Assembly (NCBI GenBank): GCA_964642165.1
Contig: CAZXOC010000003.1
Coordinates: 784-64,783 of the forward strand
From: an uncultured Planctomycetaceae bacterium
GTDB lineage: Bacteria; Planctomycetota; Phycisphaerae; SM23-33
DNA: 64,000 nt
Direction of reading: 5' to 3'
The notes beneath the pieces were generated by a model. That model ran no database searches, was not told where the DNA came from, and worked only from the letters and a program-made list of their open reading frames with translations. Position 1 is the stretch's first letter, and each line of letters opens with the position of its first letter. The translations under genes and the position numbers were made by a program. This document shows, piece after piece, positions 6,991-42,327 of the stretch.

Positions 6991-7124
6991 GTCACCCCGA
7001 TTCGCCCCGGCGCGGGCGGTTTCCCCTTGGGCCTTCGGTGGTCCGCCCCTGGACGAGGGTTTTTCCCGACGGCCGGTGAGTGTACCGTAGTGGCCGTCAT
7101 CGACGAGAGAGGAAGGATGAAGCC

Positions 7125-8843: not shown

Positions 8844-8867
8844 GCCGCGAAGGAGCGGAGAGCAATC

Positions 8868-9353
8868 ATGAAACACGTGATCATGGCACTGGTTCAGAAT
8901 CAGCCGGGCGTCCTGGCGCACGTGGCCGGCATGTTCGCCGCCCGCGGGTTCAACATCGATTCGCTCGTCGTCGGGCGGACGGAGGACCCGATGTTGTCGC
9001 GGATGACGATCGTGGCCGTCGGGGACGACCGCGTCCTGGAGCAGATCCGCAAGCAGTTGGAGAAGATCGTCACCGTCGTGAAGGTTCGCGACTTCCAGGA
9101 CGTCCGCTACGTCGAGCGCGACCTGATGCTGGTTCGCGTCCACGCCCCCGCGGAGAAGCGCTCGAAGGTGGTGGACCTGGTGACCCTGTTCCGCGGGCGC
9201 GTGGTGGACGTGTCGCGCAAGAGCCTCATCGTGGAGATGTCGGGCCCCGAAGACAAGCTGGAGGCGTTCGTCGACCTGGCGAAGCCCTACGGCATCGGCG
9301 AGCTGGCCCGCACCGGCGTGATCGCGATGAAGCGAGGCACGCAGGCCGACTGA
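8868..9353 (+). CDS. ilvN: Acetolactate synthase, small (regulatory, ACT-domain) subunit
   Basis: MKHVIMALVQNQPGVLAHVAGMFAARGFNIDSLVVGRTEDPMLSRMTIV (ACT domain), 161 aa, 24 nt downstream of ilvB. Confidence 0.85.
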   Translation: MKHVIMALVQNQPGVLAHVAGMFAARGFNIDSLVVGRTEDPMLSRMTIVAVGDDRVLEQIRKQLEKIVTVVKVRDFQDVRYVERDLMLVRVHAPAEKRSKVVDLVTLFRGRVVDVSRKSLIVEMSGPEDKLEAFVDLAKPYGIGELARTGVIAMKRGTQAD

Positions 9354-9410: not shown

Positions 9411-10307
9411 ATGGGCGACGAGAAGGTGAAGGTGTTGTTCGACACGGACATCGGCAGCGACATCGACGACGCGGTGGCGCTGGCGTACCTGCTGAGCCAG
9501 GATCGCTGCGAGCTGCTGGGCGTCACGACCGTCACCGGCGAGCCGGAGCGGCGCGCGGAGATGGTATCGGCCATCTGCCGCCACGTCGGGCGCGACGACG
9601 TGCCGATCCACGCCGGCTGCCCGCAGGCGATGCTGATCGAGATGCGCCAGAAGACCGCCCCGCAGGCCGCGGCGCTGGGCGAGTGGGACCGGCGGAGCGA
9701 CTTCGCCGCCGGCACGGCCATCGAGTTCCTCCGCGAGACGATCCGCGCGCACCCGGGCGAGGTGACGCTGCTGGCCGTCGGGCCGCTGACCAACGTCGGC
9801 CTGCTGTTCGCGACGGACCCGGCGCTCCCGGCCATGCTGAAGCAGCTCGTCCTGATGTGCGGGCGCTTCTTCCGCGGCACGGGCGGCGAATGGAACGCCG
9901 GCGGCGACCCGCATGCCACCGCGATCGCCTACGGCAACGGCCAGCAGGCCCGCCCGCCGCGCCAAATCAGCTTCGGGCTCGACGTGACCACCCGCTGCAT
10001 GATGGACGCCGACGCCTGCCGAGAGAAGTTCGCCGCCAAGGCGCTCGAGCCCGTCCGCGACTTCGCCGAGGTCTGGTTCCGGAAGCACGACCGCATCTGC
10101 TTCCACGACCCGCTCGCCGCGGCGTGCGTCTTCCAGGGCGACCTGTGTCGGTACCGCGACGGCTGCGTCACCGTCTCCCTGACGCCGCCGACGATGGGCT
10201 GGACCGTCTTCGACGCCAGCGCCGAGGACGACCGGAAACCCCACACCGTCGCTTGCGAGGTCGATCCCGACGCCTTCTTCGCGCACTACTTCGACGTCGT
10301 GACGTGA
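9411..10307 (+). CDS. Inosine-uridine preferring nucleoside hydrolase family protein
   Basis: N-terminal aspartate cluster VLFDTDIGSDIDDAVALAYLL (DxDxxxDD fingerprint of IU-NH), about 298 aa. Confidence 0.8.
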   Translation: MGDEKVKVLFDTDIGSDIDDAVALAYLLSQDRCELLGVTTVTGEPERRAEMVSAICRHVGRDDVPIHAGCPQAMLIEMRQKTAPQAAALGEWDRRSDFAAGTAIEFLRETIRAHPGEVTLLAVGPLTNVGLLFATDPALPAMLKQLVLMCGRFFRGTGGEWNAGGDPHATAIAYGNGQQARPPRQISFGLDVTTRCMMDADACREKFAAKALEPVRDFAEVWFRKHDRICFHDPLAAACVFQGDLCRYRDGCVTVSLTPPTMGWTVFDASAEDDRKPHTVACEVDPDAFFAHYFDVVT

Positions 10308-22480: not shown

Positions 22481-22606
22481 CCCCTGCCGGGCGCCGCCCG
22501 GGGGCCTGCCGCAGGAACCCGAGCCGGGCGCCGACCGCGCCCGATTCCGCATTCCCGGCGGAAAACCCGCGCCGCCGCGGCGTCTTAGTTGTGGTCCGAG
22601 CGAGCC

Positions 22607-23110
22607 ATGGCCTCCATTGATCCGGCAACCCTGGGCGGCTGGTACGACGCGCACGCCGCGGCGCTGGTGCTCTACGCACGCCAGTTCGTTTCCCCGGGCG
22701 AGGCCGAGGACATCGTCCAGGACGTCTTCGTCCGCCTGATGGCGCAGCGCGGGCGGCCGGACAACGCCAGGGCCTGGCTGTTCCGCTCCGTGCGGAACGC
22801 CGCGGTGTCCAGGCTGCGGGCCGGGCACCGCCGGCGCCGGCGGGAGCAGGCCCGGGCCGCCGGGCGCCGCGAGGCGTTCGAGAGCCGCCCGGAAGACCTG
22901 ATCGACGCCCGGGTGGCACGACAGCTTCTGGCGTCGCTGCCTCAGGACCAGCGCGAAGTGGTCGTCCTGCGGGTCTGGTCGGGCCTGACGCTGCGGGAGA
23001 TCGCCGAGACGACGGACGCCGGCATCACGAGCGTGTTCCGGCGGTATCGGGCGGGTCTGGCCGCCCTGCGGAAAGGAATGGAATCGTCATGCCACAAGAA
23101 GAGCGTCTGA
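22607..23110 (+). CDS. ECF-type RNA polymerase sigma factor (sigma-70 family)
   Basis: Region 2 (AEDIVQDVFVRLM..ARAWLFRSVRNAAVS) and region 4 HTH (VVVLRVWSGLTLREIAETTDAGITSVFRRYRAGL). ATG at 22607 in frame with the TTG-initiated track ORF. Confidence 0.8.
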   Translation: MASIDPATLGGWYDAHAAALVLYARQFVSPGEAEDIVQDVFVRLMAQRGRPDNARAWLFRSVRNAAVSRLRAGHRRRRREQARAAGRREAFESRPEDLIDARVARQLLASLPQDQREVVVLRVWSGLTLREIAETTDAGITSVFRRYRAGLAALRKGMESSCHKKSV

Positions 23111-23604
23111 CACCCGCGGAGGAGGAGTTGGCCGCAGCGCTCGGCCGGCTCGCCCCCGCACGGCCGCGCATCGACCGCGACCGGCTCCTGTTCCTCGCCG
23201 GGCGGGCCTCGGCCCGTCGGGCCCTGCGCGGCTGGCAGGGCGCGGCGGCGGCGATGGCGGCCTGCCTTGCGGCGGCGATCGCGCTGCGTCCGGCCGCGCC
23301 CGGGGTGCCTCCCGTCGTCCCGAGCCCCGCGGCGCCCGTGGTTGCCCGTCACCCCGCCGCGCCGGAGGCCGAGCCCTGGCCCGCGCTGGCGGCGGCCGTG
23401 GCGCCGCGCGGCGGCTACGCCCGCCTGCGCGACGACGTGCTCCGCCGCGGCGTGGCGGCCCTGCCCCCCATGGGCGAGTCCCGCCGCGAGGGCGACCCGC
23501 TGACGCTGGCCGATGCCCGGCAGGCCCCGGCGCTGCGCCGGGCCGACCGGGCCGGCCTGTCCATCGTGTGGAGCTTCCTTCTTCCCGGGAGGGCGAACCC
23601 ATGA
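23089..23604 (+). CDS. Putative anti-sigma factor (single-pass membrane protein)
   Basis: Overlaps the sigma gene 3' end by 22 nt. N-terminal cytoplasmic segment, central hydrophobic helix AAAMAACLAAAIAL, Pro/Ala-rich periplasmic tail. The call is by position and topology only. Confidence 0.4.
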   Translation: MPQEERLTPAEEELAAALGRLAPARPRIDRDRLLFLAGRASARRALRGWQGAAAAMAACLAAAIALRPAAPGVPPVVPSPAAPVVARHPAAPEAEPWPALAAAVAPRGGYARLRDDVLRRGVAALPPMGESRREGDPLTLADARQAPALRRADRAGLSIVWSFLLPGRANP

Positions 23605-30412: not shown

Positions 30413-32755
30413 TCAGACGGTCAGGCGCACGTAGAGGCTCGGCAGCACGCGCGGAAGCTGCCGGATGTCCGGCAGGATGACGAACCGCCGCCGGGGAAAC
30501 ATGATCTCCATGTCGGGAAGGCTGTTCTCCTCCGTCGAGATGCCGAACGTGTGGATCGTCTTGCGGTCGTTTTCCTCGCAGGCCATGCGGACGTCGTACT
30601 GGGCGTGGCGAGTGTTGGGGTCGTAGCGGTCGTCCATCGGCCGCCCGTCGGTGATGAGGATGATCAGGCGCTGCCTGGCGTCGACGCGGCCGAGGCGGAA
30701 GCCCGCGTGCCGCAGGGCGGGCCCGATCCGCGTGCAGTTCAGCGGGTACGCCGACAGGACGCGCCCGATGCTGTCTCGTCCCCACGCTTCGTCGAAGTCT
30801 TTGTAGACGAAAAACGCGCAGTTCTCCGGCCCGTTGGAGTGGAACCCGCAGATGCTGAAGCGGTCCCCCAGGCTCGCCAGCCCCTGCCCGAGGATCAGCG
30901 CGGCGTGCTTCTCGATCTCGATGATGCGTTTGCGGTCGGACAGCTCTTCCGCCGTCGAGCCGCTGGCGTCGAGGACGATCTCCACGGCCAGGTCGCGGCG
31001 GTTGATGCGGGGCTTCTCGTAGAAGCGGACCTTCGGGGAGGGCTCCTTGCGGCGCTGCACGAGGTAGTCGACCAGCAGGTCGGCGTTGATCTGCTCGCCT
31101 TCCTGGAGGTACTTCTCGCGGCGGGTCAGGTCCGGCTTGAGGCGCTCGAAGACGCGCCCGACGCGGCGGGCCTCGCTGGTGATGTCCGGCGGGATGGGCT
31201 GCTCGCCGGCCTGCTCGGGCACCTTCTCGTAGACGAAGCAGTAGTCGCGGTAGTAGTCGCCCTCCTCGTGGCTCCATTCGTCGTAGACGTAGCAGACCCG
31301 GGCCGCCTCGGCGCGATCCGCCTCCTCCTGCTCGCCCGAGCCCTCGCGGGCCTCGTCGGCTGCCTGGGCGGCCGCGTCCTCCCCGGCGCCCTCATCCCGG
31401 CGCCTGTGGTGCTGTTCCGCCGCACGCTTGAGATCAGCCACCAGGCTCCCACGCGGGGCCGCCGAAACGCCCCCGGGAAAGAGGAAGTCCGGCAGGAACG
31501 CGAACGGCCGAAGGAGATCGCCCGCCAGGCCCGGACAGTCCCGGGCGACCTGCTCGGCCAACTCGCCGTCGAGCTGCCGGACCGTGTCAAAGAAGTTCAC
31601 CGACCCGTCCGCCAGGCGCAGCAGCGCGGCGACGCCCGGGGCCTGTGCCGCATCGGACCTCGCCGCGTCATGGAACAGGCGCTCCGCCGCGGACGCCGGC
31701 GGGCGCCACCGGAACTCCTCCCGCAGGGCGAAGTCGATCAGCCGCCGGGAGCCCGGCCAGCGGGCCCGCACGCGACGCAGCACGCGCACGTACTCGGCGA
31801 TCTGGAAGAGGTTCAGGCGAAGCGAATCGCTCCCGACGACCTCCCGGCACGTGCGGTGGCCTTGCAGGCCGTGCACGCGGCAGAAGCTGTCCTCGGCGAT
31901 CATCCCCGCCGCGACCACGCTCGCCAGCAGGTACCACTTCCGGTTCACCGCCGCGTCGTCGAAGTAGCGGATGCGGCTGGGCACGTACAGCCACTTGTAG
32001 AGACATACCAGCGAGCAGCCGCGCTCGATCAGGTCGTCGGAGTCCAGCCGCCCCAGCTCGCAGACCTCGATCTCGCGCCCGGTGAGGGCCTTGAGCAGGG
32101 CCGACATGATCGGATGAACGTCGTCGAGGCGGCACTCCCGCGTGATGCGCAGGATGTACGTTTCGGACGTCTTGAGCCTGCCCTCCAGGAAGGCCAGGGC
32201 CTTGGGCTTGCTCCTGCGGAAGATCTCGAGGCCCGCGTCGATGTAGAGGCCGATCTCCTCGGGGCGCAGGCGGTCGATCAGGCGGCGGTAGCCCTTGATG
32301 AAGGCCACGGCGAGGTCATCGTCGGTTTCCCGCAGGCGGCGCGCGTGGGTGACGAGGTCGCGGACCTGGTCGGGGCGCTCTCCCAGCCCGCCCGTCCCCA
32401 GCGTGCGGAACAGCGTGATGCCGTAGTGCAGGCGGGCGTTGGCGAGTTCCTGGCCGAGGTCGACGATGTCGACGAAGACGCCGGGCAGGTCCAGCAGCCA
32501 GCGCATGCGCGGGTTGAGCGCCGCGAGGAATTCCTTCAGGACGTGGTCGAAGCAGCGCTGGTCGGCCTGCTTCATCAGCTCGAAGAAGCGCCGCGTGACC
32601 TCCTGTCGCTCCGGGCCGATGAGCCCCTGTCGCAGGAGCCCGTCGATCGCCCGGGCGAAGATCTCGCGGTAGCCCCAGCAGACGCTCCGCAGCGTGAAGC
32701 CGTGGTACCCGTCGCCGCCTCGCGCGGGCGGCGTGCTAGGGCTCGGCGGGTCCAT
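30413..32755 (-). CDS. CbbO/NorD-like protein with a C-terminal von Willebrand A (VWA) domain
   Basis: 780 aa. Long helical N-terminal region, acidic linker, C-terminal VWA with MIDAS DASGS (VLDASGSTAE) and ..LIILITDGRP.. Start overlaps the upstream AAA+ gene by 20 nt. Confidence 0.7.
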   Translation of the reverse strand: MDPPSPSTPPARGGDGYHGFTLRSVCWGYREIFARAIDGLLRQGLIGPERQEVTRRFFELMKQADQRCFDHVLKEFLAALNPRMRWLLDLPGVFVDIVDLGQELANARLHYGITLFRTLGTGGLGERPDQVRDLVTHARRLRETDDDLAVAFIKGYRRLIDRLRPEEIGLYIDAGLEIFRRSKPKALAFLEGRLKTSETYILRITRECRLDDVHPIMSALLKALTGREIEVCELGRLDSDDLIERGCSLVCLYKWLYVPSRIRYFDDAAVNRKWYLLASVVAAGMIAEDSFCRVHGLQGHRTCREVVGSDSLRLNLFQIAEYVRVLRRVRARWPGSRRLIDFALREEFRWRPPASAAERLFHDAARSDAAQAPGVAALLRLADGSVNFFDTVRQLDGELAEQVARDCPGLAGDLLRPFAFLPDFLFPGGVSAAPRGSLVADLKRAAEQHHRRRDEGAGEDAAAQAADEAREGSGEQEEADRAEAARVCYVYDEWSHEEGDYYRDYCFVYEKVPEQAGEQPIPPDITSEARRVGRVFERLKPDLTRREKYLQEGEQINADLLVDYLVQRRKEPSPKVRFYEKPRINRRDLAVEIVLDASGSTAEELSDRKRIIEIEKHAALILGQGLASLGDRFSICGFHSNGPENCAFFVYKDFDEAWGRDSIGRVLSAYPLNCTRIGPALRHAGFRLGRVDARQRLIILITDGRPMDDRYDPNTRHAQYDVRMACEENDRKTIHTFGISTEENSLPDMEIMFPRRRFVILPDIRQLPRVLPSLYVRLTV

Positions 32756-33614
32756 CGCCCGCGCCCTCCATCAGCTCGCCGAAGTAGAGCTTGACGATGT
32801 GGTTGATGGACTCGGCGACCTCGGCCTCTTCGGTGAGCGTCTGGGTGATGGCGGCGTTGCAGGCCTTCAGCGGGTCCAGGCCCGCCTTCATCAGCCGGCC
32901 GACGTAGACCAGCAGCCGCGTGCTGACCCCCTCGTCGAGGCCGAAGCCCTTCAGCTCCCGCGTCTTGGCGCCCATCTCGGCGAGTCGGCGGCCCTCGGCC
33001 TCCGACAACCCGGTCTCCGTTTGTATGATTCGCGACTCGACGTCGATCGCCGGGTGCGTGAAGGTCAGGCTGGCGAAGCGCTGCTTGGTGGAGTGCTTCA
33101 GGTCCTTGACGATGCTCTGGTAGCCCGGGTTGTAGCTGAGCACCATCATGAAGTCCGGCGCGGCGCGGATCACCTCGCCCGTCTTGTCGACGTAGAGGAT
33201 CCGCCGGTCGTCCGTCAGCGAGTGGATGATGACGGTGGTGTCCTTGCGGGCCTCCACGATCTCGTCGAGGTAGCAGATGCCCCCGTAGCGCACGGCGAGC
33301 GTCAGCGGGCCGTCCTGCCAGACCGTCTGCTCGTCCTTGAACAGGTACCGCCCGACGAGGTCCCCGGCCGTCAGGTCCTCGTGGCACGAGACCGTCACCA
33401 GCGGCAGATCCAGCACGTGGGCCATGTACTCGATGAACCGCGTCTTGCCGCAGCCGGTCGGGCCCTTGATGATCAAGGGGATGTCGCTGTCGAAGGCCGT
33501 CCGGAAGACCTCTTCCTCGTCGTTCTGGGGGATGTAGTTGGGCCGGGCCCGCACGCGGAACTGGTCGATCGTCTTCCGTGCGTCGCTGGTGGGTTGTGTC
33601 TTACGGTTCGTCAC
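32736..33614 (-). CDS. CbbQ/NorQ/MoxR-type AAA+ ATPase (AAA_5)
   Basis: Walker A GPTGCGKT, Walker B ICYLDEI, sensor motifs. About 292 aa if the GTG at 33614 is the start (no in-frame ATG; it lies 9 nt after the radical-SAM stop). The rest of the 580-aa track ORF is a spurious extension. Confidence 0.65.
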   Translation of the reverse strand: MTNRKTQPTSDARKTIDQFRVRARPNYIPQNDEEEVFRTAFDSDIPLIIKGPTGCGKTRFIEYMAHVLDLPLVTVSCHEDLTAGDLVGRYLFKDEQTVWQDGPLTLAVRYGGICYLDEIVEARKDTTVIIHSLTDDRRILYVDKTGEVIRAAPDFMMVLSYNPGYQSIVKDLKHSTKQRFASLTFTHPAIDVESRIIQTETGLSEAEGRRLAEMGAKTRELKGFGLDEGVSTRLLVYVGRLMKAGLDPLKACNAAITQTLTEEAEVAESINHIVKLYFGELMEGAGDGPAEP

Positions 33615-33622
33615 GATGCCAC

Positions 33623-34555
33623 CTATTCCGAGGCCGCTTCGGCCGCGCTGTAGTACACCTCGGCGCCCATCTGCGTCCCCACGAGCAGGCCCAGGCCGTC
33701 GAGCTTCTCCAGGTACTTCAGCACCTCGACCCGCCTCATGCTCAGGCCCTCGGCGACGTCGCGCACGCGGCAGGGGCGCCTGCGGAGCAGCGCGAGGACC
33801 TGCTGCTCGTCGACGTCGTCCGCCTCGGCGGCCTCGTCCTCGGTGGCCGAGTCCCAGATCACCTCCGCCGTCGGGTGGAACAGCTCGGCCAGCCGGCGGA
33901 GCTCCTCCCGAGGCACGGGGCGCGCGAAGTCCTCCGCGGGCGGGCGGGTCACCGTGTTCAACTGGACGCGGTCCGGGCGGATGGCCTCGACGCACTCGGC
34001 GATCTGCTCCACCTCCGACTCGATGCCCGTGTGCCCGCCCAGCAGCATCACCTCCAACCAGTACTCGCCGGGAAACTCGGCGCGGAAAGCTGCCAGGCCG
34101 CCGACGACCCGCTCGAACGACAGCCCCTCGGCCGGCCGATTGACGGCCTGGAACATGCCCTCGCCGCCGGCGTCGAGCGACGGGACGATCAGGTCGGCGC
34201 CCATCAACTCCGCACGGACGTCCTCGCGCCACAGCAGCGAGCCGTTGGTCAGGACCGCCACGGGCGTTTCGCCCATTGCCTGGATGCCCTCGATCAGCTC
34301 GCCGGTCCGGGAATACAGCGTCGGCTCGCCCGAGCCGCTCAGCGTGACGTAGTTGGCCCCGCACCCGATGCGGGCCTCCACGTCGGCCAGCACGTCCGCC
34401 AGCGGCACCCACTCCTTTCGCTCGGTCGTCCGGCACGTCGTGCGCCCGAGCTGGCAGTAGATGCAGTCGTACGTGCACGTCTTGAACGGCACCAGGTCGA
34501 CGCCCAGCGACCGGCCGAGCCGCCGCGAGGGTACGGGGCCAAAAACGTGACTCAT
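33623..34555 (-). CDS. Radical SAM protein (COG0731-like, NifB/MoaA-related Fe-S enzyme)
   Basis: N-terminal GPVPSRRLGRSLGVDLVPFKTCTYDCIYCQ (CxxxCxxC cluster motif), SGSGEPT glycine-rich SAM motif, 310 aa. Confidence 0.75.
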   Translation of the reverse strand: MSHVFGPVPSRRLGRSLGVDLVPFKTCTYDCIYCQLGRTTCRTTERKEWVPLADVLADVEARIGCGANYVTLSGSGEPTLYSRTGELIEGIQAMGETPVAVLTNGSLLWREDVRAELMGADLIVPSLDAGGEGMFQAVNRPAEGLSFERVVGGLAAFRAEFPGEYWLEVMLLGGHTGIESEVEQIAECVEAIRPDRVQLNTVTRPPAEDFARPVPREELRRLAELFHPTAEVIWDSATEDEAAEADDVDEQQVLALLRRRPCRVRDVAEGLSMRRVEVLKYLEKLDGLGLLVGTQMGAEVYYSAAEAASE

Positions 34556-34594
34556 CGCGAGATCCCGTCGAGTTCGGTGGCGCGGACGCCCGCG

Positions 34595-34834
34595 TCAGCC
34601 GTCCAGGTCACACTGGCCGCAGGGCGTGTCGCGCCCGCAGCAGGTCGTATCGCGCCCGCAGCGGATTGCCGAGGAACCGCCGGCGCCTTTCACGATCACG
34701 GCACCGCCCGTGCCGATCAGGCGCCGGACGCGCCCGCCGCACTCGCTGCACGTCCGGACCGGCTTGTCGGTCATGTTCTGGAACTGCTCGAAGCGCCGGC
34801 CGCACTTCGTGCACTCGTAGTCATATGTCGGCAT
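34595..34834 (-). CDS. FmdB-family zinc-ribbon protein
   Basis: MPTYDYECTKCGRRFE...PVRTCSECGG (CxxC...CxxC zinc ribbon), 79 aa with a Gly/Cys-rich tail. Confidence 0.6.
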   Translation of the reverse strand: MPTYDYECTKCGRRFEQFQNMTDKPVRTCSECGGRVRRLIGTGGAVIVKGAGGSSAIRCGRDTTCCGRDTPCGQCDLDG

Positions 34835-34890
34835 TCTTCCTGCTCTCCTGCGCTCGCGCGTCGGCTGCCGGTCGCCCGCCGGGCGCGAGG

Positions 34891-36144
34891 TCAGTGGTCA
34901 CAGAGGTTCCCGCCCGTCGTCAGCGTGCCGCCGAGGTAGGCCGCGACCAGTTCCGCCGGTTCCTGCGCCGAGGCGCCCACGACGACCGCGATCCCGCTGG
35001 CGGCGAAGAGCTGCTGGGCCCGGCTGCCCATCCCGCCGGCGATGATCACCTCGGCGCCCATTTCGTGAAGCCAGCGGGGCAGCGCGCCGGGCTCGTGCCC
35101 CGGCGGCGTGTGCTTCGTCGTCTCAAGGACTTGCCCGGTCGACGCGTCCACCTCGATGATGGCAAATTCCTCGCAGTGCCCGAAGTGGGCACTCAGCCGC
35201 CCCGCCGCCAAGGGAATCGCGATCTTCATGCGATGGTTCTCCTGCTGGGGTTTCTCCAGGTCGGTTGATCCCCCCTCCTTCGGCTCGTCCGGTGCGATCT
35301 TGCGCACGATCTCAGCGAAGGCGGCCGCGGCCGCCGAACCGTCAGATGCCTCGATGAACGGCGCGCCTGCATCGCCCGCGGCGACGATGGCCGGATCGAT
35401 GGGGATGCGCCCGAGGAACGGCACGCCCGCCTCGCGGGCCAGCGCCTCGCCCCCGCCGGACCGGAACAGGTCCACGCGGTGGCCGCACTGCGGGCAGACG
35501 TACCCGCTCATGTTCTCCACGATGCCCGCCACCGGCAGCGACAGCGCCCGGCAGAACGACACGCAGCGGCGCACGTCGGAGATCGCCAGGTCCTGCGGCG
35601 TGGTGACGACGACGGCGCCGGCGGGCTGACCGACGAGCTGGGCGACCGTGAGCGGCTCGTCGCCCGTGCCCGGCGGGGAGTCGATGACGAGGTAGTCCAG
35701 CCGCCCCCACGTCACGTCGGTGAGGAACTGGCGGATCGCGCCGAACTTGCGAGGCCCGCGCCAGATGATCGCCTCGTCGCCGTTGGCCAACAGGAACCCG
35801 ATGGACATGACGGCGAGATGGTCATCGACCTGGACGGGCACCATCTCCCCCTCCTTGAGGCCGACCGGCCGGCCCGTCAGCCCCAGCAACTGCGGGATGC
35901 TCGGCCCGTGCACGTCGACGTCGAGGAGCCCGACCTTCCTGCCCGCGCGGGCCAGTGCCACGGCCAGATTCGCCGCCACCGTGCTCTTGCCCACGCCCCC
36001 CTTGCCCGACAGCACCAGCAGCTTCTGCCCGATGCGTTCCATGCGGCTGCGCAGCATCAACTGCTGCCTCTCGCGTTCGGCCGGGTCCGGGCCCTGCGCC
36101 GACGGGCGCGAAGGCGGGGGCTGTTTCGGAGACGAGTCCGTCAT
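34891..36144 (-). CDS. Mrp/ApbC/NBP35-family Fe-S cluster carrier ATPase fused to a C-terminal NifX/NafY-type (Nitro_FeMo-Co, PF02579-like) domain
   Basis: RBS AGGAG 11 nt upstream of the ATG at 36144 (MTDSSPKQ..). Walker A VLSGKGGVGKST, ferredoxin-like CPQCGHRVDLF Cys pair. C-terminal MKIAIPLAAGRLSAHFGHCEEFAIIEVD...IIAGGMGSRAQQLF matches dinitrogenase FeMo-cofactor-binding-domain proteins. Confidence 0.75.
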   Translation of the reverse strand: MTDSSPKQPPPSRPSAQGPDPAERERQQLMLRSRMERIGQKLLVLSGKGGVGKSTVAANLAVALARAGRKVGLLDVDVHGPSIPQLLGLTGRPVGLKEGEMVPVQVDDHLAVMSIGFLLANGDEAIIWRGPRKFGAIRQFLTDVTWGRLDYLVIDSPPGTGDEPLTVAQLVGQPAGAVVVTTPQDLAISDVRRCVSFCRALSLPVAGIVENMSGYVCPQCGHRVDLFRSGGGEALAREAGVPFLGRIPIDPAIVAAGDAGAPFIEASDGSAAAAAFAEIVRKIAPDEPKEGGSTDLEKPQQENHRMKIAIPLAAGRLSAHFGHCEEFAIIEVDASTGQVLETTKHTPPGHEPGALPRWLHEMGAEVIIAGGMGSRAQQLFAASGIAVVVGASAQEPAELVAAYLGGTLTTGGNLCDH

Positions 36145-36175
36145 GTGATTTACAACTCCTGGGGGCCCGAGGTCC

Positions 36176-37087
36176 TCAAGTTTCATCGAACAGCCGGGCC
36201 GAGACGGCTTGCCAGAGCCCGCGCACATCGGACGCGGCCCCATCGCGGGCGTACTCCACGATGGACTGCCTGTGGACCTGGGCTTCCGTCACGCCCGGAT
36301 CATACCGCACGCGTCCCAAGGCCGACACGCCTCGGTCCGCCGCCGCCGCCTCGACCTGGGCGGCGACGTCGTCGTTCAGGTCCCACTTGTTCACGCACAC
36401 CGCCGCCGGGATGCCGAAGTGCTTCGCCAGGTCCGCGACGCGAGAGAAGTCGTGCAGGCCGCTCAGCGTCGGCTCCGTCACGATCAACACGAAGTCCGCC
36501 GCCGAGATCGAGGCGATCACCGGGCAGCCGATCCCCGGCGAGCCGTCGATCAGGACGAGCTTCTTGTGGTTCCGGTCGGCGATCTTCTTGGCCTCCGTCC
36601 GCACGAGACTGACCAGCTTGCCGGAGTTCTCCTCGGCCACGCCGAGCTTCGCGTGCACCATCGGCCCGTGCCGCGTGTCCGAGACGAACCACTCGCCGTT
36701 CACGACCGGCGCGAACTCGACGGCGTCGTACGTGCAGAAGTACGCGCAGACACCGCAGCCCTCGCAGGCGATCGGGTCGACGCGGAACGTCCGGTCGACG
36801 CGGCCGTTGCCGGGGCCGTCATAGAAGACGGCGTCGAACCGGCACACCTCCTCGCACTTCCCGCAGGCCGTGCAGTGACCCGGCATGATCCGCGCACGCG
36901 AGCCGCCCGAGAACTTCTCCCGCCGGCGGACCGTCGGGGCAAGCACGAGGTGCAGGTCGGCCGCGTCCACGTCGCAGTCCGCCAGCACCACCTCTTCCGC
37001 CAGCGCCGCGAAGGACGCGACCAGAGACGTCTTGCCCGTGCCCCCCTTGCCGCTGATGACGACCAGTTCCTTCATCCGATCAGACAC
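36176..37087 (-). CDS. MinD/CooC/ParA-like P-loop ATPase with an inserted 2x[4Fe-4S] ferredoxin domain
   Basis: Deviant Walker A ISGKGGTGKTS. Cys motifs CTACGKCEEVC and CEGCGVCAYFC. Second nucleotide-binding half IDGSPGIGCP. Confidence 0.7.
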   Translation of the reverse strand: MSDRMKELVVISGKGGTGKTSLVASFAALAEEVVLADCDVDAADLHLVLAPTVRRREKFSGGSRARIMPGHCTACGKCEEVCRFDAVFYDGPGNGRVDRTFRVDPIACEGCGVCAYFCTYDAVEFAPVVNGEWFVSDTRHGPMVHAKLGVAEENSGKLVSLVRTEAKKIADRNHKKLVLIDGSPGIGCPVIASISAADFVLIVTEPTLSGLHDFSRVADLAKHFGIPAAVCVNKWDLNDDVAAQVEAAAADRGVSALGRVRYDPGVTEAQVHRQSIVEYARDGAASDVRGLWQAVSARLFDET

Positions 37088-37105
37088 CTCCGGGGTGCCG
37101 GCCGA

Positions 37106-37963
37106 TCATGGCTCAGCCGTGCCCGTCAGGTCGCGCAGTTGCGACAGCAGTTTCTCGAACAGCGCCGCGTAGCCGTCGACGGCGCGGCAGGCCAGCTCGC
37201 CGCGCGAGTACGCCTCGGCGATCCGCCGGTCGTCGGGAATCTCCGCCAGCACGTCGATGCGATGCGTCCGGCAGAATGCCGTCGTCTCGGCGTCCCCGAC
37301 GTCCGCGCGGTTGATCACCACGCCGAACGGCATCTTCAACGCCCGCGTCATCTCGACCGCCAGCTTCAGGTCGTTCAGGCCGAACGGCGTCGGCTCCGTC
37401 ACGAGGAGCACGTAATCGCAGCCGCGCACGCTCTCGATCACCGGGCAGGACGTCCCCGGCGGGACGTCGTAGATCATGACGTCCCCGTCGGAGGCGGCCG
37501 CCTTCGTCGCCCGGATCAGCGGCGGGCTCATTACTTCGCCCACGTTCAGCAGCCCCTGAACGAACTGCACGTCGCCGGCGCGCCCGGTCTCGACGCGCCC
37601 GGTCACGCGCTGCGTTTCCGTGATGGCGTTCACGGGGCAGACCAGCCAACAGCCGCCGCACGAATGGCACAGCTCGGGGAACACGAGCACCTTCTCGCCC
37701 ACGCAGACGATCGCGCTGTACTGACAGATCTCGCCACACTTGCCGCAGAGGATGCACGTGTCCGCCGCCACCTCGGGCACGCTGCCGCCCACGGGCTGAC
37801 TGGTCGCGATCTCCGGCTTGAGGAACAGGTGGCCGTTGGGTTCCTCGACGTCGCAGTCGAGATAGCCGACGCTCCGGCCCGCCCCGGCGGCCACGAACGC
37901 GAGGTTGGTGGCCACCGTGGTCTTGCCGGTGCCGCCCTTTCCGCTGGCGACGGCAATTCTCAT
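37106..37963 (-). CDS. MinD/CooC/ParA-like P-loop ATPase with inserted 4Fe-4S ferredoxin domain (paralog)
   Basis: VASGKGGTGKTT; CILCGKCGEIC and CHSCGGCWLVC; YDVPPGTSCP. Adjacent to and 19 nt from its paralog. Confidence 0.7.
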   Translation of the reverse strand: MRIAVASGKGGTGKTTVATNLAFVAAGAGRSVGYLDCDVEEPNGHLFLKPEIATSQPVGGSVPEVAADTCILCGKCGEICQYSAIVCVGEKVLVFPELCHSCGGCWLVCPVNAITETQRVTGRVETGRAGDVQFVQGLLNVGEVMSPPLIRATKAAASDGDVMIYDVPPGTSCPVIESVRGCDYVLLVTEPTPFGLNDLKLAVEMTRALKMPFGVVINRADVGDAETTAFCRTHRIDVLAEIPDDRRIAEAYSRGELACRAVDGYAALFEKLLSQLRDLTGTAEP

Positions 37964-37993
37964 AGCTGACTCATCTGTTCGGGGGCTGTGGCG

Positions 37994-38581
37994 TCAGCGG
38001 TTTTGGCCGCCACCGCCCATGCCGCCGCCACCGCCCATGCCGCCGCCGCGGCCCATGCCGCCGCCACGACCCATGCCGCCGCCACGACCCATGCCGCCGC
38101 CGCGGCCCATGCCGCCGCCGCGTCCCATACCGCCGCCGCCCATGCCGCCGCCCATGCCCGGCGTGCCGCCGGGCGGCATGGGCTGCTGGGCGGGCGGGGC
38201 CTGGGCGGCCCCGGGCTGGGCGATGCCGAAGTGGCTCGGCACGTTCGGCTGATCGGTGGCCTGAAGCTGGTCGCTCTTGAACTGCTCCACCACCGCCAAG
38301 ACCGGCCCCATGCAGCCCACGATGACGCCAATCCCCGCCGCGCTCAACGTCTGGTAGGCATTGGGCCCGCAGTTGCCGGTCAGCAGCACCTGTACGCCCT
38401 TTTCGGCCATCAACTGCGCCGACTGGATCCCCGCGCCGCTGCCGGCAGTGATGCTCGGGTTCTCGATCGCCTCGTGCTCCATCGTGTCTGTCTCCACGAT
38501 CAGGAAGCACGGGCACCGCCCGAACCGGGGGTCAACGTCGGCGTCCATCGACGGAGCCGTAGCTGTCACCGCGATCTTCAT
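37994..38581 (-). CDS. NifB/NifX-type (Nitro_FeMo-Co) domain protein with a C-terminal Gly/Met-rich repeat tail
   Basis: MKIAVTATAPSMDADVDPRFGRCPCFLIVETD...GVQVLLTGNCGPNAYQTL (PF02579-like), followed by (GGGMGR)n: ...MGGGMGGGGMGRGGGMGRGGGMGRGGGMGRGGGMGRGGGMGGGGGMGGGG, encoded by an 18-nt DNA repeat at about 38030-38150. Confidence 0.65.
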   Translation of the reverse strand: MKIAVTATAPSMDADVDPRFGRCPCFLIVETDTMEHEAIENPSITAGSGAGIQSAQLMAEKGVQVLLTGNCGPNAYQTLSAAGIGVIVGCMGPVLAVVEQFKSDQLQATDQPNVPSHFGIAQPGAAQAPPAQQPMPPGGTPGMGGGMGGGGMGRGGGMGRGGGMGRGGGMGRGGGMGRGGGMGGGGGMGGGGQNR

Positions 38582-38666
38582 TTGCTGTCTCCTTGCCCGG
38601 CCGCGCGGCGCAGCCTGGGCGTTCTGTTGTGCCGTCCGTGCGTCTCGGGAAACCCCGCCGCCGGCG

Positions 38667-39053
38667 TCACGGTTCCTTCGCCTGGCCCTGAAGCTCCTCG
38701 ATACGCTTCTTGATCCCGTCGAGCGCGTCCTCGAAGTACTCCACCTGGCCCTGGAGCGCCGCGAGCTCTTGCTCCTTGCTCATGGCCGCCCCTGCCGGTG
38801 CCGCCGGCCAGGCGCCCGCCGGCATGGGCGCGGCGCCTCCGTAGGCCGGCCAGCCCGCCGCGGCACGCTGCCAGCCAGGCATCCCGGTTGCGTAGAACCA
38901 GTTCCGCCGGCCTCGCCCGCCGCCGCCCCAGCCGAAGCCTCGCCCCCCCACGGGGTTCATGTACCCGGGCATGGGATAGCCCGCGCAGTACCCGGCCGCA
39001 CGTCCTGTCATGGGACCCATTCCCCCCGGGCCCGTTCCATCACCACCTGGCAT
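38667..39053 (-). CDS. DUF5320-like protein (Gly/Pro/Met-rich N-terminus plus C-terminal coiled coil)
   Basis: MPGGDGTGPGGMGPMTGRAAGYCAGYPMPGY... N-terminus typical of DUF5320. C-terminal SKEQELAALQGQVEYFEDALDGIKKRIEELQ coiled coil. Confidence 0.55.
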   Translation of the reverse strand: MPGGDGTGPGGMGPMTGRAAGYCAGYPMPGYMNPVGGRGFGWGGGGRGRRNWFYATGMPGWQRAAAGWPAYGGAAPMPAGAWPAAPAGAAMSKEQELAALQGQVEYFEDALDGIKKRIEELQGQAKEP

Positions 39054-39067
39054 CTTCTTGCTCCTTG

Positions 39068-39952
39068 TCAGTTTGCTTGCGGGGACCCGTTCACCGGTGC
39101 CCGGGCCGATCGCCGCGCGACCAGGCTATTCACCTCGCAGCCCAAGTCTTGGGCGATCACCGGACACTTCGCCTTAAGAATGAAGAAGATCTCCCTCGGC
39201 ACGTCGCTGAGGGTTTCGTAGTTGCCTTGGCCCTTGGCGACGATCAGGTCGGCCCGGTCGAACCGGCGGCGGAAGGCCTCGCTGCAATCGCCCAGGATCG
39301 TCCCCGGCGCGTCGCTGCCGTTGTCGATCACCTCGACCAGGCCGGTCAGTCCGGCGGCCTCGGCGTCGGCTCGCGTCGCGTCGTTGATGACCGGTGCGCC
39401 CTTGACGGCGACGGCGACCTTTTCGGTCGGAAGCCGCTCCAGCAGCAGCCGGTCGAAGACCAGCTCTCCCGCGTTGTCGCCCAGGTAGAGGACCTCCTCC
39501 GCCCGCGCCACGGCGCTGCCGAAGCCGTCCAGGTCCGCCTCCAGCGGGGCGGCCAGCGCGTGCGCCACGCCGTCCCGGACCTTGGCTTCGTCCATCTCGC
39601 CATCGACGCCGAAGTCGATCACGTTGCCCGCGATGGCCAGGCGGACGGCCGTCTCCAACGGGGCCGGCGAGGCGTCCACCTTCGCCTTGAGTCCGGGATA
39701 CATCGCCAGCGCAACGCGCGTGAAGTGGTCCTTGATGTCGCGATACGGGTCGTTTACGCCGGTCAGTCGGCGGATCATGCGCTGGATCCGCTGGCCCATA
39801 GCCGGGGGAGACTGCCGGAGGTCCATCTCCGCCGCGGCGCGGAGCACCTCCCGGAGCACCTGCTCGTGGACGGCCTCGTCGTCGGTCACCAGTCGGGCCG
39901 CGTCCAGGGCCTGACGGACGAAACACGGGATGCAGTCGAAAAACGTCCTCAT
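39068..39952 (-). CDS. DUF89 (ARMT1-like, metal-dependent damage-control phosphatase fold) protein
   Basis: MRTFFDCIPCFVRQ N-terminus, conserved DNAGE motif (LYLGDNAGELVFD) and KGQGNYE motif (LIVAKGQGNYETL). Confidence 0.65.
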   Translation of the reverse strand: MRTFFDCIPCFVRQALDAARLVTDDEAVHEQVLREVLRAAAEMDLRQSPPAMGQRIQRMIRRLTGVNDPYRDIKDHFTRVALAMYPGLKAKVDASPAPLETAVRLAIAGNVIDFGVDGEMDEAKVRDGVAHALAAPLEADLDGFGSAVARAEEVLYLGDNAGELVFDRLLLERLPTEKVAVAVKGAPVINDATRADAEAAGLTGLVEVIDNGSDAPGTILGDCSEAFRRRFDRADLIVAKGQGNYETLSDVPREIFFILKAKCPVIAQDLGCEVNSLVARRSARAPVNGSPQAN

Positions 39953-39961
39953 GCCTGTTCC

Positions 39962-40324
39962 TTACAGCCAGTGGCCTTCCACGTCGGGCTTGTCGACGAG
40001 CGACAGCCGGCCGGCCTTCAGGGCCTCCACCGCGTCTCGGACCGAGCCCTGCGCACCGACGTAGACCTTGACGCCGCCGGCCTGAAGCGTACGGAACGCC
40101 TTCGGGCCGACGTGGCCCGTCACGATCGCCTCCGCGCCCAGGTCGATGACGTTCTGCGCCGCCTGGATGCCGGCGCCCTGGAGGGCGTTGAGGTTCTGCG
40201 AGTTGTCGTGCGCCGTGGCCTGGCCCGTGTCGGTGTCCACGAGCACGAACGCCTTGGCCCGCCCGAATCGCGGGTCGACGGGGCTTGCCAAGTCGGTCCC
40301 TTGAGCCGTGATTGCCGCTTTCAT
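39962..40324 (-). CDS. NifB/NifX-type (Nitro_FeMo-Co) single-domain protein
   Basis: MKAAITAQGTDLASPVDPRFGRAKAFVLVDTDTGQ...AIVTGHVGPKAFRTLQAGGVKVY. The start at MKAAI is in frame 15 codons into the track ORF, whose upstream ATG is at 40369. Confidence 0.65.
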   Translation of the reverse strand: MKAAITAQGTDLASPVDPRFGRAKAFVLVDTDTGQATAHDNSQNLNALQGAGIQAAQNVIDLGAEAIVTGHVGPKAFRTLQAGGVKVYVGAQGSVRDAVEALKAGRLSLVDKPDVEGHWL

Positions 40325-40394
40325 CTTCCATATCTCCAGCAATAGTTTGCTGTTGCGCCGCTGCCTCACGCCGCCCGGGGCGGCGCCTTGCCGG

Positions 40395-40775
40395 CTAGAG
40401 GCCGCCGCGCCAGCCGCGACCGCGACGCCCGCCGCCGCGCTGCCGGCGGCCGAAGCCCCGACCGAAGCCCATGCCGCCCGAAGCCGCGCCGACCACCGGC
40501 CCGCCCTGGATGGCCAGGGCCTGCCCGTCCACGAGGGCGCGGGCGACCTTCGATCGCCCCGACGCCAGGATCCGCGTCACGGTCGGGCGGGAGACGCCCA
40601 TCCTCGCCGCCACCGCCTCCTGGTCCAGGCCCTCGCCGTCGACCAGGCGGATCGCCTCGAACTCGTCCAGCCCCAGGGTCGTCCACTGAAGCTGGCGTGC
40701 GGGCACGCCAGCGGGCTTGTAGACCGTCACGCCGGGCCGGCCGGCGATTATGCGTTGTTTCGGGGGGCGGGACAT
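40395..40775 (-). CDS. DUF134 (UPF0251) family predicted DNA-binding regulator
   Basis: MSRPPKQRIIAGRPGVTVYKPAGVP...LGLDEFEAIRLVDGEGLDQEAVAARMGVSRPTVTRILASGRSKVARAL (sigma-70 region-4-like HTH). Gly/Arg-rich tail. First gene behind the promoter/operator. Confidence 0.7.
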   Translation of the reverse strand: MSRPPKQRIIAGRPGVTVYKPAGVPARQLQWTTLGLDEFEAIRLVDGEGLDQEAVAARMGVSRPTVTRILASGRSKVARALVDGQALAIQGGPVVGAASGGMGFGRGFGRRQRGGGRRGRGWRGGL

Positions 40776-40782
40776 CGCGGCC

Positions 40783-40830
40783 TCATTATGAACCTACGTT
40801 CATAATAGCATCGGCTGGAAATCAGGTCAA
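40783..40830 (-). promoter_or_regulatory. Sigma-70-like promoter (TTGACC-N17-TATTAT) with an overlapping perfect inverted repeat ATTATGAAC-N4-GTTCATAAT (candidate operator) and a GAGG RBS
   Basis: Minus strand reads TTGACCtgatttccagccgatgcTATTATGAACgtagGTTCATAATGAGGccgcgATG. The -35 lies at plus 40825-40830 and the -10 at 40802-40807. The 9-bp arms are at 40785-40793 and 40798-40806. The ATG of the DUF134 gene is at 40775. Confidence 0.5.
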
Positions 40831-41348
40831 GCGCTGCGGAAAAAAGACTTGGTTCAAGTCAGGGCAACGTTCTCGCATCTGGCCTCCGGGCTTGGCGAAA
40901 CGCTATATCTTTATTATAATGTTGCTTACGACTAACGTGGCTGGTGCAGGCTCCCTCGAAGGCGTTCCCCACTCGGAAACAGGGCCGACAAGCGTTGATC
41001 CAATAAACCGGAACTCCGGAATCCGTGCGACGCAAAGCTCTTTCAGAAAGAACCTTACGTCTGCCCGCTACGGGCTGGACCGTTACGTGGACGGCGCGTT
41101 CGTCACTCTGAGGCGCCCGACAGGTCCAGGATCTCCTACTGCTTTATATGAGTTTGCGGGGGGCGAAATGTTTTGTATAGGGGTCGGGGAAAGGACATAA
41201 TGAAATAGAGATATAAAGTTCTGGATAGCAAAGGAGTATGGCGTTTTCCCTATTATTTTAATGGGCAAATGAACCTACACAAAACGACACATTGGTTGAT
41301 CTCGTCGCCATCGAATCGCCCATTGGCGAATGAAGATTTGCGGCCCGG

Positions 41349-41786
41349 TCAGTCCCTCGGCGGCAGGGCGGCGACGTGGAGCCAGAAGTGATCGATGGCC
41401 TGGATCACCCGCATGAACTCCTCCAGGTCCACGGGCTTGGCGACGTAGCAGTTGCAGTTGAGGTCGTAGGCCTGGAGGATGTCCTGCTCGGCCTCGGACG
41501 TGGTCAGGACGATAACGGGAATCCTCCGCAGCTTCCTGTCGGCCTTGATCTCGACGAGGACCTCGCGCCCGTCCTTCCTGGGGAGGTTCAGGTCCAGCAG
41601 GACCAGGTCGGGTGTCGGGGCATGCCGGTGCGGGCCCTCTCGCCGCAGGAACTGCAGGGCCTCCTCCCCGTTGGCGACCACGTGGAGGTGGTTGACCAGC
41701 CCTCCCTCGCGGAAGGACTCCCGCACCAGGCGAACGTCGCCGGGGTTGTCCTCCACCAACAGGATCTCAACGGACTTGCTGCTCAT
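41349..41786 (-). CDS. Receiver-only response regulator (CheY-like)
   Basis: ILLVEDNPGDVRLVRE (phospho-acceptor pocket), [14 protein letters not shown] (D phosphorylation site), VIVLTTSEAEQD, AYDLNCNCYVAKP. The start at MSSKSVE is in frame inside the 174-aa track ORF. Confidence 0.75.
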   Translation of the reverse strand: MSSKSVEILLVEDNPGDVRLVRESFREGGLVNHLHVVANGEEALQFLRREGPHRHAPTPDLVLLDLNLPRKDGREVLVEIKADRKLRRIPVIVLTTSEAEQDILQAYDLNCNCYVAKPVDLEEFMRVIQAIDHFWLHVAALPPRD

Positions 41787-41880
41787 GGGCGGCTCCGAGT
41801 CACCGGGCCGGGCGCGGGGCGTGCGCCGGCCGCGGCGGGGGGATCGCCCGGCCCGGCACGCGGGCAGGATCACCCGACGG

Positions 41881-42327
41881 TCAGCCCTCGGGCTGCTCCA
41901 CGATTCCCGACCAGTAGCCCTTCAGCAGCGTGACGATGCCGATGAGCTGCTCGATGTCCACCGGCTTGGTGATGTAGGACTTCGCGCCCAGGTCGAAGGT
42001 CTGGAGGATGTCGGCGTCCTCGTGAGACACCGTCAGGATGACGACCGGGATCTGCTTGAAGTCCTGGTCGGCGGCGATCTCGGCGAGGACCTCGCGCCCG
42101 TCCTTCCTGGGCAGGTTCAGGTCCAGCAGGATCAGGTCCGGGCGGGGCGCATCGGCGTGGGGGTCTTCTCGGCGCAGGAAGGCCATGGCCTCGATCCCGT
42201 CCTGGACGATGTGGAGGTGGTTGGCGATCCGGCCGGAGTTCAGCGCCTCCTGCGTCAGGCGGACGTCGCCGGCATTGTCCTCGACCAGGAGGATCTCGGC
42301 CGGCCTGCCCATCATGTGCTCAGTCAT
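41881..42327 (-). CDS. Receiver-only response regulator (CheY-like), paralog
   Basis: [56 protein letters not shown] overlaps the histidine-kinase stop (ATGACTGA). Confidence 0.75.

Follow-up and report, generated by a model that had tools for sequence, protein, structure and literature searches.

Positions 40785-40830 of a 64,000-nucleotide stretch of DNA from an uncultured Planctomycetaceae bacterium (contig CAZXOC010000003.1, positions 784 to 64,783; this whole stretch is hereafter called the window) are very probably, when read on the minus strand, a real promoter combined with an operator. The element lies in the intergenic region 40776-41348, between a gene encoding a DUF134/UPF0251 protein and, further upstream on the same strand, the genes of a histidine kinase and two response regulators. 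We regard this promoter and its palindrome as functional because they are conserved as a unit across the DUF134 loci of other genomes. As a whole, the region can be read with reasonable confidence as a promoter repressed through a DUF134 operator by the product of its own first gene and preceded by a possible Rho-type terminator.

Results

The promoter and its palindrome

On the minus strand, the sequence reads gcgc TTGACC tgatttccagccgaTGc TATTAT GAAC GTAG GTTCATAAT GAGG ccgcg ATG. A consensus scan located the -35 hexamer TTGACC at 40830-40825 and, after a spacer of 17 nt, an extended -10 element at 40802-40811 made of a TG (40810-40809), a c and the hexamer TATTAT (40807-40802), which together give a 10/12 match to the sigma70 consensus (TTGACA/TATAAT with 16-18 nt spacing). 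Only three sigma70-like sites of at least 10/12 occur on both strands of the 64 kb whereas 0.16 would be expected from a first-order Markov simulation, and this bears out the near-consensus promoter that an earlier note on this DNA had proposed from its letters. The same note had placed, immediately behind the promoter, an overlapping perfect palindrome followed by the GAGG-N5-ATG of the DUF134 gene, and each of these elements was recovered in its place. The palindrome (40785-40806) is a perfect 9+4+9 inverted repeat of 22 bp, composed of ATTATGAAC (40806-40798), GTAG and GTTCATAAT (40793-40785), with half-site centres 10 bp apart. It overlaps the -10 box and extends from about -11 to +11 around the predicted transcription start, which the promoter geometry places 7 nt past the -10, at about 40795 (40793-40797) on the minus strand. 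From this start, the 5' untranslated region is predicted to measure about 20 nt, and the Shine-Dalgarno sequence GAGG (40784-40781) stands 5 nt ahead of the ATG (40775-40773).

Inverted repeats with two arms of 9 nt are per se common in the window (11 against an expectation of 11.4), whereas none of 30 simulations produced an AT-rich one. The search for further copies of the palindrome that the earlier note had called for returned a single exact copy in the 64 kb, and none of 100 shuffles contained a match even at 3 mismatches. No sigma54 promoter (TGGCAC-N5-TTGC, at most 2 mismatches) was found in 40776-41348 and, at default scan thresholds, no minus-strand promoter-like site was found in 40300-41900 besides that of the operon itself. 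On its upstream side, the -35 hexamer is adjoined by a T6 tract (40845-40840, about -45 to -50). Together with a weak hairpin, GACTTGAACCAAGTC (40860-40846), this tract was returned by the scan as a terminator-like match at 40840-40860 on the minus strand, and the pair may act as a fail-safe terminator or as an A/T tract of the UP type.

Two other sequences of the window are related to the operator. A 10-nt exact copy of the operator spacer plus right half-site, GTAGGTTCAT, lies on the minus strand at 41278-41269, 481 bp upstream; it was considered as an auxiliary operator and set aside as probably due to chance, since the relatives have no consistent upstream half-sites. Only one further site, ATGAACTCCGGTCCAC at 1338-1353, comes within 2 mismatches of the operator core; it is located 26 nt upstream of a DUF6600 gene (146-1312, minus strand) and is within chance expectation.

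Conservation of the unit in other DUF134 loci

About 25 independent loci were gathered from scans of genome and metagenome collections for DUF134 proteins and from look-ups of the contigs carrying homologues. The perfect motif ATGAAC-N4-GTTCAT is present exactly once per locus in 12 loci, from genomes with 35-71% GC and including the window, L001-L003, L018, L019, L023 and L027-L030, and every copy is found just upstream of the DUF134 start, where it overlaps or abuts the core promoter. In 193 kb, no perfect site occurs outside the DUF134 upstream regions, about 0.01 being expected by chance. The seven closest loci have 12 nt between the site and the ATG, and four others have 18-22 nt. The closest relatives keep the full layout, namely an A/T tract, aacTTGAC, 17 nt, a TATTAT that runs into the left arm, GAG, 6 nt and the ATG. 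TTGAC stands 21 nt ahead of ATGAAC in most close Planctomycetota relatives, TATTAT is identical in L018, L027-L030, L001 and L023, and the GAG at the Shine-Dalgarno position is kept in close relatives. At the position of the T6, nearly all relatives have an A5-7 or T6-7 tract, without a hairpin and with an AT content above the locus mean. When the upstream regions are aligned, the invariant columns are the two half-sites, and the sole match of the 573-nt spacer in a blastn comparison with all relatives is the 22-34-nt operator block. Hence the promoter and overlapping palindrome, paired in the earlier note on the basis of the window, form one unit that is conserved ahead of DUF134 genes. At the level of strains, seven independent metagenome contigs (L012-L017 and L031) carry the region at more than 99.5% identity, so that it is not an assembly artefact; 6 of its 573 nt vary among these contigs, which are too close to one another to measure constraint, and no polymorphism falls within the promoter and operator at 40785-40830.

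A reading of the upstream sequences indicates that the palindrome meets the core promoter in each of the other lineages as well. In L006, L007 and L010, a related palindrome (ATGCAC-N4-GTGCAT in L006 and L007) takes up the 17 nt that separate TTGACT from the -10, and in L005 and L021 the right arm of the palindrome supplies the -10 (CATAAT). The archaeon L008 (Methanobacteriota) has TTATGAAT-TAAT-ATTCATA just upstream of the DUF134 start codon, and the TTATAG immediately 5' of this palindrome could be a TATA box. In the non-planctomycete L020, a palindrome of the DUF134 type, TGAACATATGCTCA, is found within 3100-3175 just past the -10 of the DUF5320 promoter, this gene being adjacent to the DUF134 gene on its downstream side; the site therefore follows the cluster and not merely the regulator gene. 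We also observed that the protein P0073, which corresponds to the upstream region of L019, carries a 60-residue N-terminal extension that is the translated promoter/operator, its start having been mis-called.

These comparisons also bear on whether the palindrome acts as DNA at all. Transcription from upstream would allow it to fold into a 9-bp stem closed by a 4-nt loop directly ahead of the Shine-Dalgarno sequence, and it could then be a leader RNA hairpin affecting stability, translation or termination rather than an operator. This is scarcely credible, and we exclude it because the left arm is the -10 box, hence absent from the transcript of the promoter itself, and because other lineages place the palindrome in the untranscribed spacer between -35 and -10. 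Moreover, the arms are conserved in sequence, and not merely in their pairing, across the 12 loci.

The DUF134 protein as candidate repressor

The DUF134/UPF0251 gene (40395-40775, minus strand) encodes a protein of 126 residues that matches Pfam PF02001 (1.1e-22, 80.8 bits versus a gathering cut-off of 27); its match to NCBIfam PRK04217 is under the cut-off (67 versus 115). The protein consists of a conserved N-terminal segment, a sigma-70-region-4-like helix-turn-helix and a Gly/Arg-rich tail, and its start codon is considered right because the starts of 37 homologues align with its N-terminus, MSRPPKQR. AlphaFold2 yields a confident three-helix core at residues 36-83 (predicted local distance difference test, pLDDT, above 90), and the best fold matches of the model are region 4 of SigR and the DNA-binding domain of DeoR on its operator (PDB 7bhy), at 0.5-0.6 Å over 40-48 residues. 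A sequence search of the PDB returned no solved DUF134 structure, and the sequence similarity to DeoR is marginal (E 0.07). In the full-text literature searched, no functional study of DUF134/UPF0251 (COG1342, PF02001) or of DUF5320 was found, and the searchable literature does not seem to contain a description of the operator motif.

A change of half-site is accompanied by a change in the predicted recognition helix of the DUF134 protein. The helix SRPTV(T)R is associated with the half-site GAAC in the majority of the 12 loci (L023 having SRPTFSR), SRSTFTR with GCAC in two loci, SRATFGR with GCGC/GCTC in two loci, SQPTFNR with GAAT in the archaeon L008, and SRGTV(Q/W)R with TTTTGTG-N6-CACAAA in L009 and L024, which makes at least five helix/half-site classes over a base of about 20 loci, several classes having one or two members. 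Because of this covariation the first gene product is favoured as the binder, and DUF134 is likely to be the protein that binds the palindrome. Half-site centres 10 bp apart would suit a dimer bound to one face of the helix, and a site covering -10 and +1, combined with an optimal 17-nt spacer, is in the position of a repressor and not of an activator or of a MerR-type regulator. We thus consider it fairly likely that bound DUF134 would repress rather than activate. The autorepression by the first gene product put forward in the earlier note consequently stands as far as the position over -10/+1, which fits, and the identity of the binder, which the helix covariation favours, are concerned; binding and repression themselves are predictions drawn from sequence comparison.

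Two other kinds of binder have to be weighed. The Gram-positive LexA box of the Cheo type, CGAACRNRYGTTYC, has a GAAC-N4-GTTC core, which the palindrome of the window shares together with its spacing, and the ATGCAC-N4-GTGCAT variant resembles the reported Fibrobacter LexA box; the palindrome could then be an SOS box and the operon under DNA-damage control. Of the LexA of Planctomycetes, it is stated only that it does not use the E. coli motif (PMC3108266). We hold an SOS box to be very unlikely. The flanks of the window palindrome are the conserved TTAT/ATAA and not C/G, the association with DUF134 genes is exclusive (at every locus, and nowhere else in the 193 kb), the half-sites follow the DUF134 recognition helix, and a variant is found in L008 although archaea are not known to have LexA. 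In addition, the operon is devoid of DNA-repair genes. No LexA, RecA or Uvr domain was found among the 37 open reading frames (ORFs) of the window scanned with Pfam.

Alternatively, the operator could be real but bound by another regulator, such as the ArsR-like C-terminus of a radical SAM protein, a redox regulator of the Rex/CRP type or a global factor, DUF134 doing something else. The radical SAM protein encoded at 33623-34555 has a weak ArsR/SmtB match (E 5e-6), AT-rich TGAA-type palindromes are typical of Rex-like operators in anaerobes, and DNA binding by DUF134 is not demonstrated in the literature searched. However, the Rex operator is TTGTGAA-N4-TTCACAA, from which the palindrome differs in spacing and in sequence. 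Binding by another protein would also leave the covariation with the DUF134 helix across at least five classes unexplained, and the site stays with DUF134 despite changed neighbours (L001 has no NifX gene, and L005 and L008 have other neighbours), all of which makes this alternative improbable.

Several points nonetheless weigh against DUF134 as the operator-binding repressor. Besides the narrow base of the covariation and the core shared with the Cheo box, no obvious site was found in front of the DUF134 genes of L004 and L020. Furthermore, the DUF134 protein of the window has no cysteine, which excludes a direct ligation of an Fe-S cluster via cysteine and thereby makes the inducing signal obscure.

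The AT-rich stretch upstream of the promoter

The window has a GC content of 71.0% (100-nt windows: mean 71%, standard deviation 5.4). The intergenic region 40776-41348 (573 nt) has 51% GC and its part 41150-41340 has 42.9%, in agreement with the AT-rich outlier singled out in the earlier note. In the 64 kb, 100-nt windows below 50% GC are confined to 40771-40948 and 41113-41355, with a minimum of 34%, and nine other intergenic regions never fall below 58%. That the stretch contains no credible ORF, as had also been noted, is in line with the lack of codon-position periodicity in the spacer ORFs (GC at the first, second and third positions, GC1 to GC3, of about 0.47-0.56 versus a GC3 of 0.91-0.93 in the flanking genes) and with the fact that a comparison of the longest ORF of the AT-rich part (61 aa) with 1.84 billion representative proteins yielded no relative. 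Relatives have intergenic regions of about 93-300 nt and no counterpart of the AT-rich stretch. The next DUF134 proteins share about 84% identity at most, which does not extend over their full length, and the genes of those that were looked at have other upstream neighbours; no closer relative suitable for footprinting the stretch was present in the collections searched. The spacer has no similarity to the rest of the window or to plasmid and phage collections. A replication origin was considered and discarded, as the spacer contains no DnaA box and the coarse GC-skew profile has no clear switch there.

The earlier note had offered several functions for this stretch, and the results speak against each of them. 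An UP element or regulatory platform is not supported, as 41113-41348 is out of the range of an UP element, at about 320-550 nt ahead of the predicted start, and has no counterpart in relatives; the sole UP-like feature is the T6 adjoining the -35, where an A/T tract is conserved. As for a small RNA, the covariance-model scan that had been suggested gave no relevant match: Rfam returned none in the window at the gathering threshold, and the best permissive matches in 40600-41500 were chance eukaryotic families inside the response-regulator gene. The folding of the spacer, taken whole and in parts, is no better than that of shuffles, or even worse, on both strands (z from -0.3 to +1.8, with about +1.8 for the AT-rich part), and nothing similar is found in relatives.

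A tie between the cluster and the neighbouring sensor had been raised too. According to Pfam, the upstream genes encode a HAMP-PAS histidine kinase and two response regulators, the last gene of this operon (41349-41786, minus strand; Response_reg only, 145 aa in the metagenome records according to the gene call in L012) being one of the latter. The whole 570-bp spacer might then be a platform for control by the adjacent kinase and regulators. This is highly unlikely: adjacency on the same strand is the only point in its favour, whereas both regulators are receiver-only and without a DNA-binding output domain, the upstream genes differ each time in L001-L003 and L027-L030, and in none of the relatives examined is the cluster adjacent to two-component genes. 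Relatives, moreover, work with 93-300 nt, and the spacer has no sigma54-type promoter.

We tentatively read the AT-rich stretch instead as a putative Rho utilization (rut) site, and hence as a Rho-dependent terminator of the upstream kinase/regulator operon, which is possible rather than probable. On the minus strand, that is, the sense strand of this operon, the segment 41128-41247 is C-rich, G-poor and unstructured (fold z = +1.8), and it begins about 100 nt past the stop codon (41349). With our own implementation of the RhoTermPredict criteria (a 78-nt window with C above G and a C every 11-13 nt; PMC6407284), the window 41220-41143 contains 26 C and 4 G (C/G 6.5) and is the most extreme of the 64 kb, its (C+1)/(G+1) of 5.4 comparing with 2.75 for the next best and 2.5 for the 99.9th percentile. 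Six C spaced by 11-13 nt are found in the windows starting at 41205 and 41199 (C/G 2.9 and 2.5). Downstream on the same strand, two GC hairpins within 150 nt of the rut-like 3' end, recognized from an inverted repeat and from the minimum-free-energy fold, are candidate pause sites: GCCCG-UAG-CGGGC at 41075-41063, and a stem with 16-nt arms of 81% complementarity at 41061-41029. The rut reading is based on this match of C over G, regular C spacing, unstructured RNA and downstream hairpins to the published hallmarks. Terminators of the RhoTermPredict type likewise have a 78-nt untranslated window with C above G after a stop codon and hairpins at no more than 150 nt, but the mean C/G of typical predicted rut sites is 1.6 (PMC6407284), which the C/G and the AT content of the present segment far exceed. 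Three facts are unfavourable to the proposal, in that no other operon end of the window has a comparable C-over-G bubble, rut sites need no extreme AT-richness, and the polymorphism of the stretch (3 sites per 236 nt) is about that of third codon positions, so that strong constraint is not shown.

The main alternative to the rut reading is that the stretch is a functionless leftover of foreign or mobile-element DNA at the junction between the operon and the two-component genes. Its confinement to this lineage, its strongly deviating composition, a polymorphism as high as that of third codon positions and an imperfect 17-nt inverted repeat (40899-40915 / 41204-41220) would all agree with such an origin. 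On the other hand, it occurs only once in the window, is not matched in the plasmid or phage collections and has no evident target-site duplication in its flanks, and a leftover would not explain the strand asymmetry (26 C, 4 G) and the depletion of structure. We consider a leftover somewhat unlikely. The more specific idea of a miniature inverted-repeat transposable element delimited by the 17-nt repeat was rejected for want of an evident target-site duplication and of a second copy.

Another candidate of the spacer is a divergent promoter-like site, TTGGCG-N17-TATAAT (40892-40920, plus strand), which stands back to back with the operon promoter and is one of the only three sites of at least 10/12 in the 64 kb. 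It could drive a non-coding RNA to which the AT-rich stretch would belong, either a small RNA or an antisense to the 3' end of the response-regulator gene. This RNA is doubtful, given that it has no Rfam match, no credible ORF, nothing similar in relatives and no plus-strand terminator-like site downstream, that it folds worse than shuffles (z from +0.65 to +1.84), and that local AT-richness inflates chance matches to a -10. The proposal of a rut site thus keeps our preference for the AT-rich stretch, at the tentative level indicated above.

The downstream operon

Ten genes follow one another on the minus strand from 40775 down to 33623, as annotated with Pfam and NCBIfam. The DUF134 gene is followed by those of a NifX-like protein (Nitro_FeMo-Co, 39962-40369), an ARMT1/DUF89-like protein (39068-39952), a DUF5320 protein (38667-39053), a second NifX-like protein with a (GGGMGR)n tail (37994-38581), two MinD-like ATPases with an inserted ferredoxin domain (CbiA+Fer4; 37106-37963 and 36176-37087), MrpORP (34891-36243; equivalog NF041136, 529.7 bits versus a cut-off of 450), a Zn-ribbon protein (34595-34834) and the radical SAM protein (33623-34555). 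The Nitro_FeMo-Co domain is found in two single-domain proteins and once more within MrpORP, and the joint presence of MrpORP (Mrp/NBP35 fused to a Di-Nase domain), MinD-ferredoxin and NifX-like partners is that of an orange protein (ORP) cluster. The intergenic gaps are short, the gene order is kept in relatives and no minus-strand promoter-like or terminator-like site was found inside the operon; given the short gaps and the lack of internal sites, a single operon transcribed from 40830-40802 is the simplest reading. A hairpin-plus-U scan of the 8-kb operon region (32700-40800) detected no intrinsic terminator-like site, 2.7 being expected from shuffles, which fits a genome that would rely little on such terminators.

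Two features of the encoded proteins were observed in addition. Three of them have Gly/Arg-rich cationic tails, namely the NifX-like protein 37994-38581, the DUF5320 protein 38667-39053 and the DUF134 protein 40395-40775, and the (GGGMGR)n tail resembles the thioferrate-binding tail of P. furiosus IssA (PMC6345978). The weak C-terminal ArsR/SmtB match of the radical SAM protein (33623-34555) is to a winged-helix of this type (NF033788, residues 252-306), so that it could be a second DNA-binding protein.

Other features of the window

The best sigma70-like match of the window, TTGACA-N18-TATCAT (11/12; 6822-6851, plus strand), lies about 230 nt upstream of acetolactate synthase genes (7080-9353), a distance that could mark a long leader or an attenuator. 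ARAGORN called a 90-nt tRNA-Tyr at 9874-9963 on the minus strand, inside a well-supported nucleoside hydrolase ORF (9411-10307, plus strand); Rfam at its gathering threshold returned no tRNA in the window, and the call is probably a false positive. Directly after an extracytoplasmic function (ECF) sigma factor gene (22589-23110), an apparent gap of 83% GC at 23111-23567 probably holds an anti-sigma ORF that was not called, rather than non-coding DNA. Sulfatase, DUF4159 and GH9 genes are among the other genes of the window and are in keeping with a planctomycete.

Discussion

The arrangement described here suggests a simple switch, in which 40785-40830 on the minus strand would be a housekeeping-type promoter of the ten-gene operon with a built-in repressor operator. 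Its two ATGAAC half-sites, with centres one helical turn apart, would cover the -10 box and the transcription start, and a DUF134 dimer bound to the palindrome would block RNA polymerase. DUF134 would by this means keep down both its own production and the expression of the ORP/IssA-like iron-sulfur genes transcribed along with it, until some signal lowers its affinity for DNA and releases repression. The T6 tract just upstream of the -35 would act as an UP-like A/T tract. The AT-rich 41113-41348 would be outside the switch and correspond to the 3' trailer, left untranslated, of the kinase/regulator operon upstream, whose C-rich, G-poor and unstructured RNA would serve as a loading site for Rho, the hairpins at 41075-41029 being the pause sites. 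Rho would terminate the transcription of the neighbouring operon and read-through would therefore not bypass the operator. In its logic, the switch would be a classical case of autorepression, and a self-repressed promoter is textbook in kind.

The operator TTATGAAC-N4-GTTCATAA provides a direct experimental handle on the uncharacterised DUF134 family, its regulon and its inducing signal, and the pairs of helix and half-site constitute a small recognition code open to testing. The rut-like segment, for its part, offers a specific candidate locus in which Rho-dependent insulation between operons could be studied in a planctomycete of very high GC content. One may speculate further that DUF134/UPF0251 is a previously unrecognised family of operator-binding repressors, common to anaerobic Bacteria and Archaea and devoted to ORP/IssA-type metal-sulfur modules, and that the cysteine-less regulator of the window would sense an anionic, thioferrate-like iron-sulfide product of the operon itself through its cationic Gly/Arg-rich tail, which is of the kind also borne by the IssA-like NifX protein and the DUF5320 protein; taken as a whole, this broader proposal is a long shot.

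Many different anaerobes carry clusters of the ORP/IssA type, whose physiological role is not yet clear (PMC8359166, PMC6345978). The gene set of the orange protein complex, studied in Desulfovibrio, comprises MrpORP, MinD ATPases of the Orp3/Orp4 type and NifX-like Di-Nase proteins (PMC6345978). The window operon has the same kind of gene content as the orp genes of D. vulgaris Hildenborough, with MrpORP, two Orp3/Orp4-like MinD-ferredoxin ATPases and NifX-like Di-Nase proteins, and in both cases control is exerted through a palindrome of the promoter region, in the window as a prediction. The two differ in their machinery. The orp promoters of D. vulgaris are sigma54-dependent and activated by the enhancer-binding protein OrpR at GGGCGYRTTTTGCGCCC, together with integration host factor (PMC8359166, PMC3897727), and the regulation of ORP clusters is known only for this Desulfovibrio system. 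In contrast, the window has a sigma70-type promoter, no sigma54 match in the spacer and an unrelated AT-rich palindrome over the -10, and its genes form a single operon with a small helix-turn-helix protein as first gene, where D. vulgaris has two divergent operons. No gene for an enhancer-binding protein was found by Pfam adjacent to the window operon. In D. vulgaris itself, DVU2107 is presumably a DUF134 protein.

A second parallel is offered by DeoR of B. subtilis, a member of the SorC family, whose helix-turn-helix superposes on that of the DUF134 model. DeoR likewise has a palindromic operator that overlaps the core promoter of its own operon. DUF134 differs from it in being without the SorC-type effector-binding domain and in having an N-terminal segment and a Gly/Arg tail of its own.

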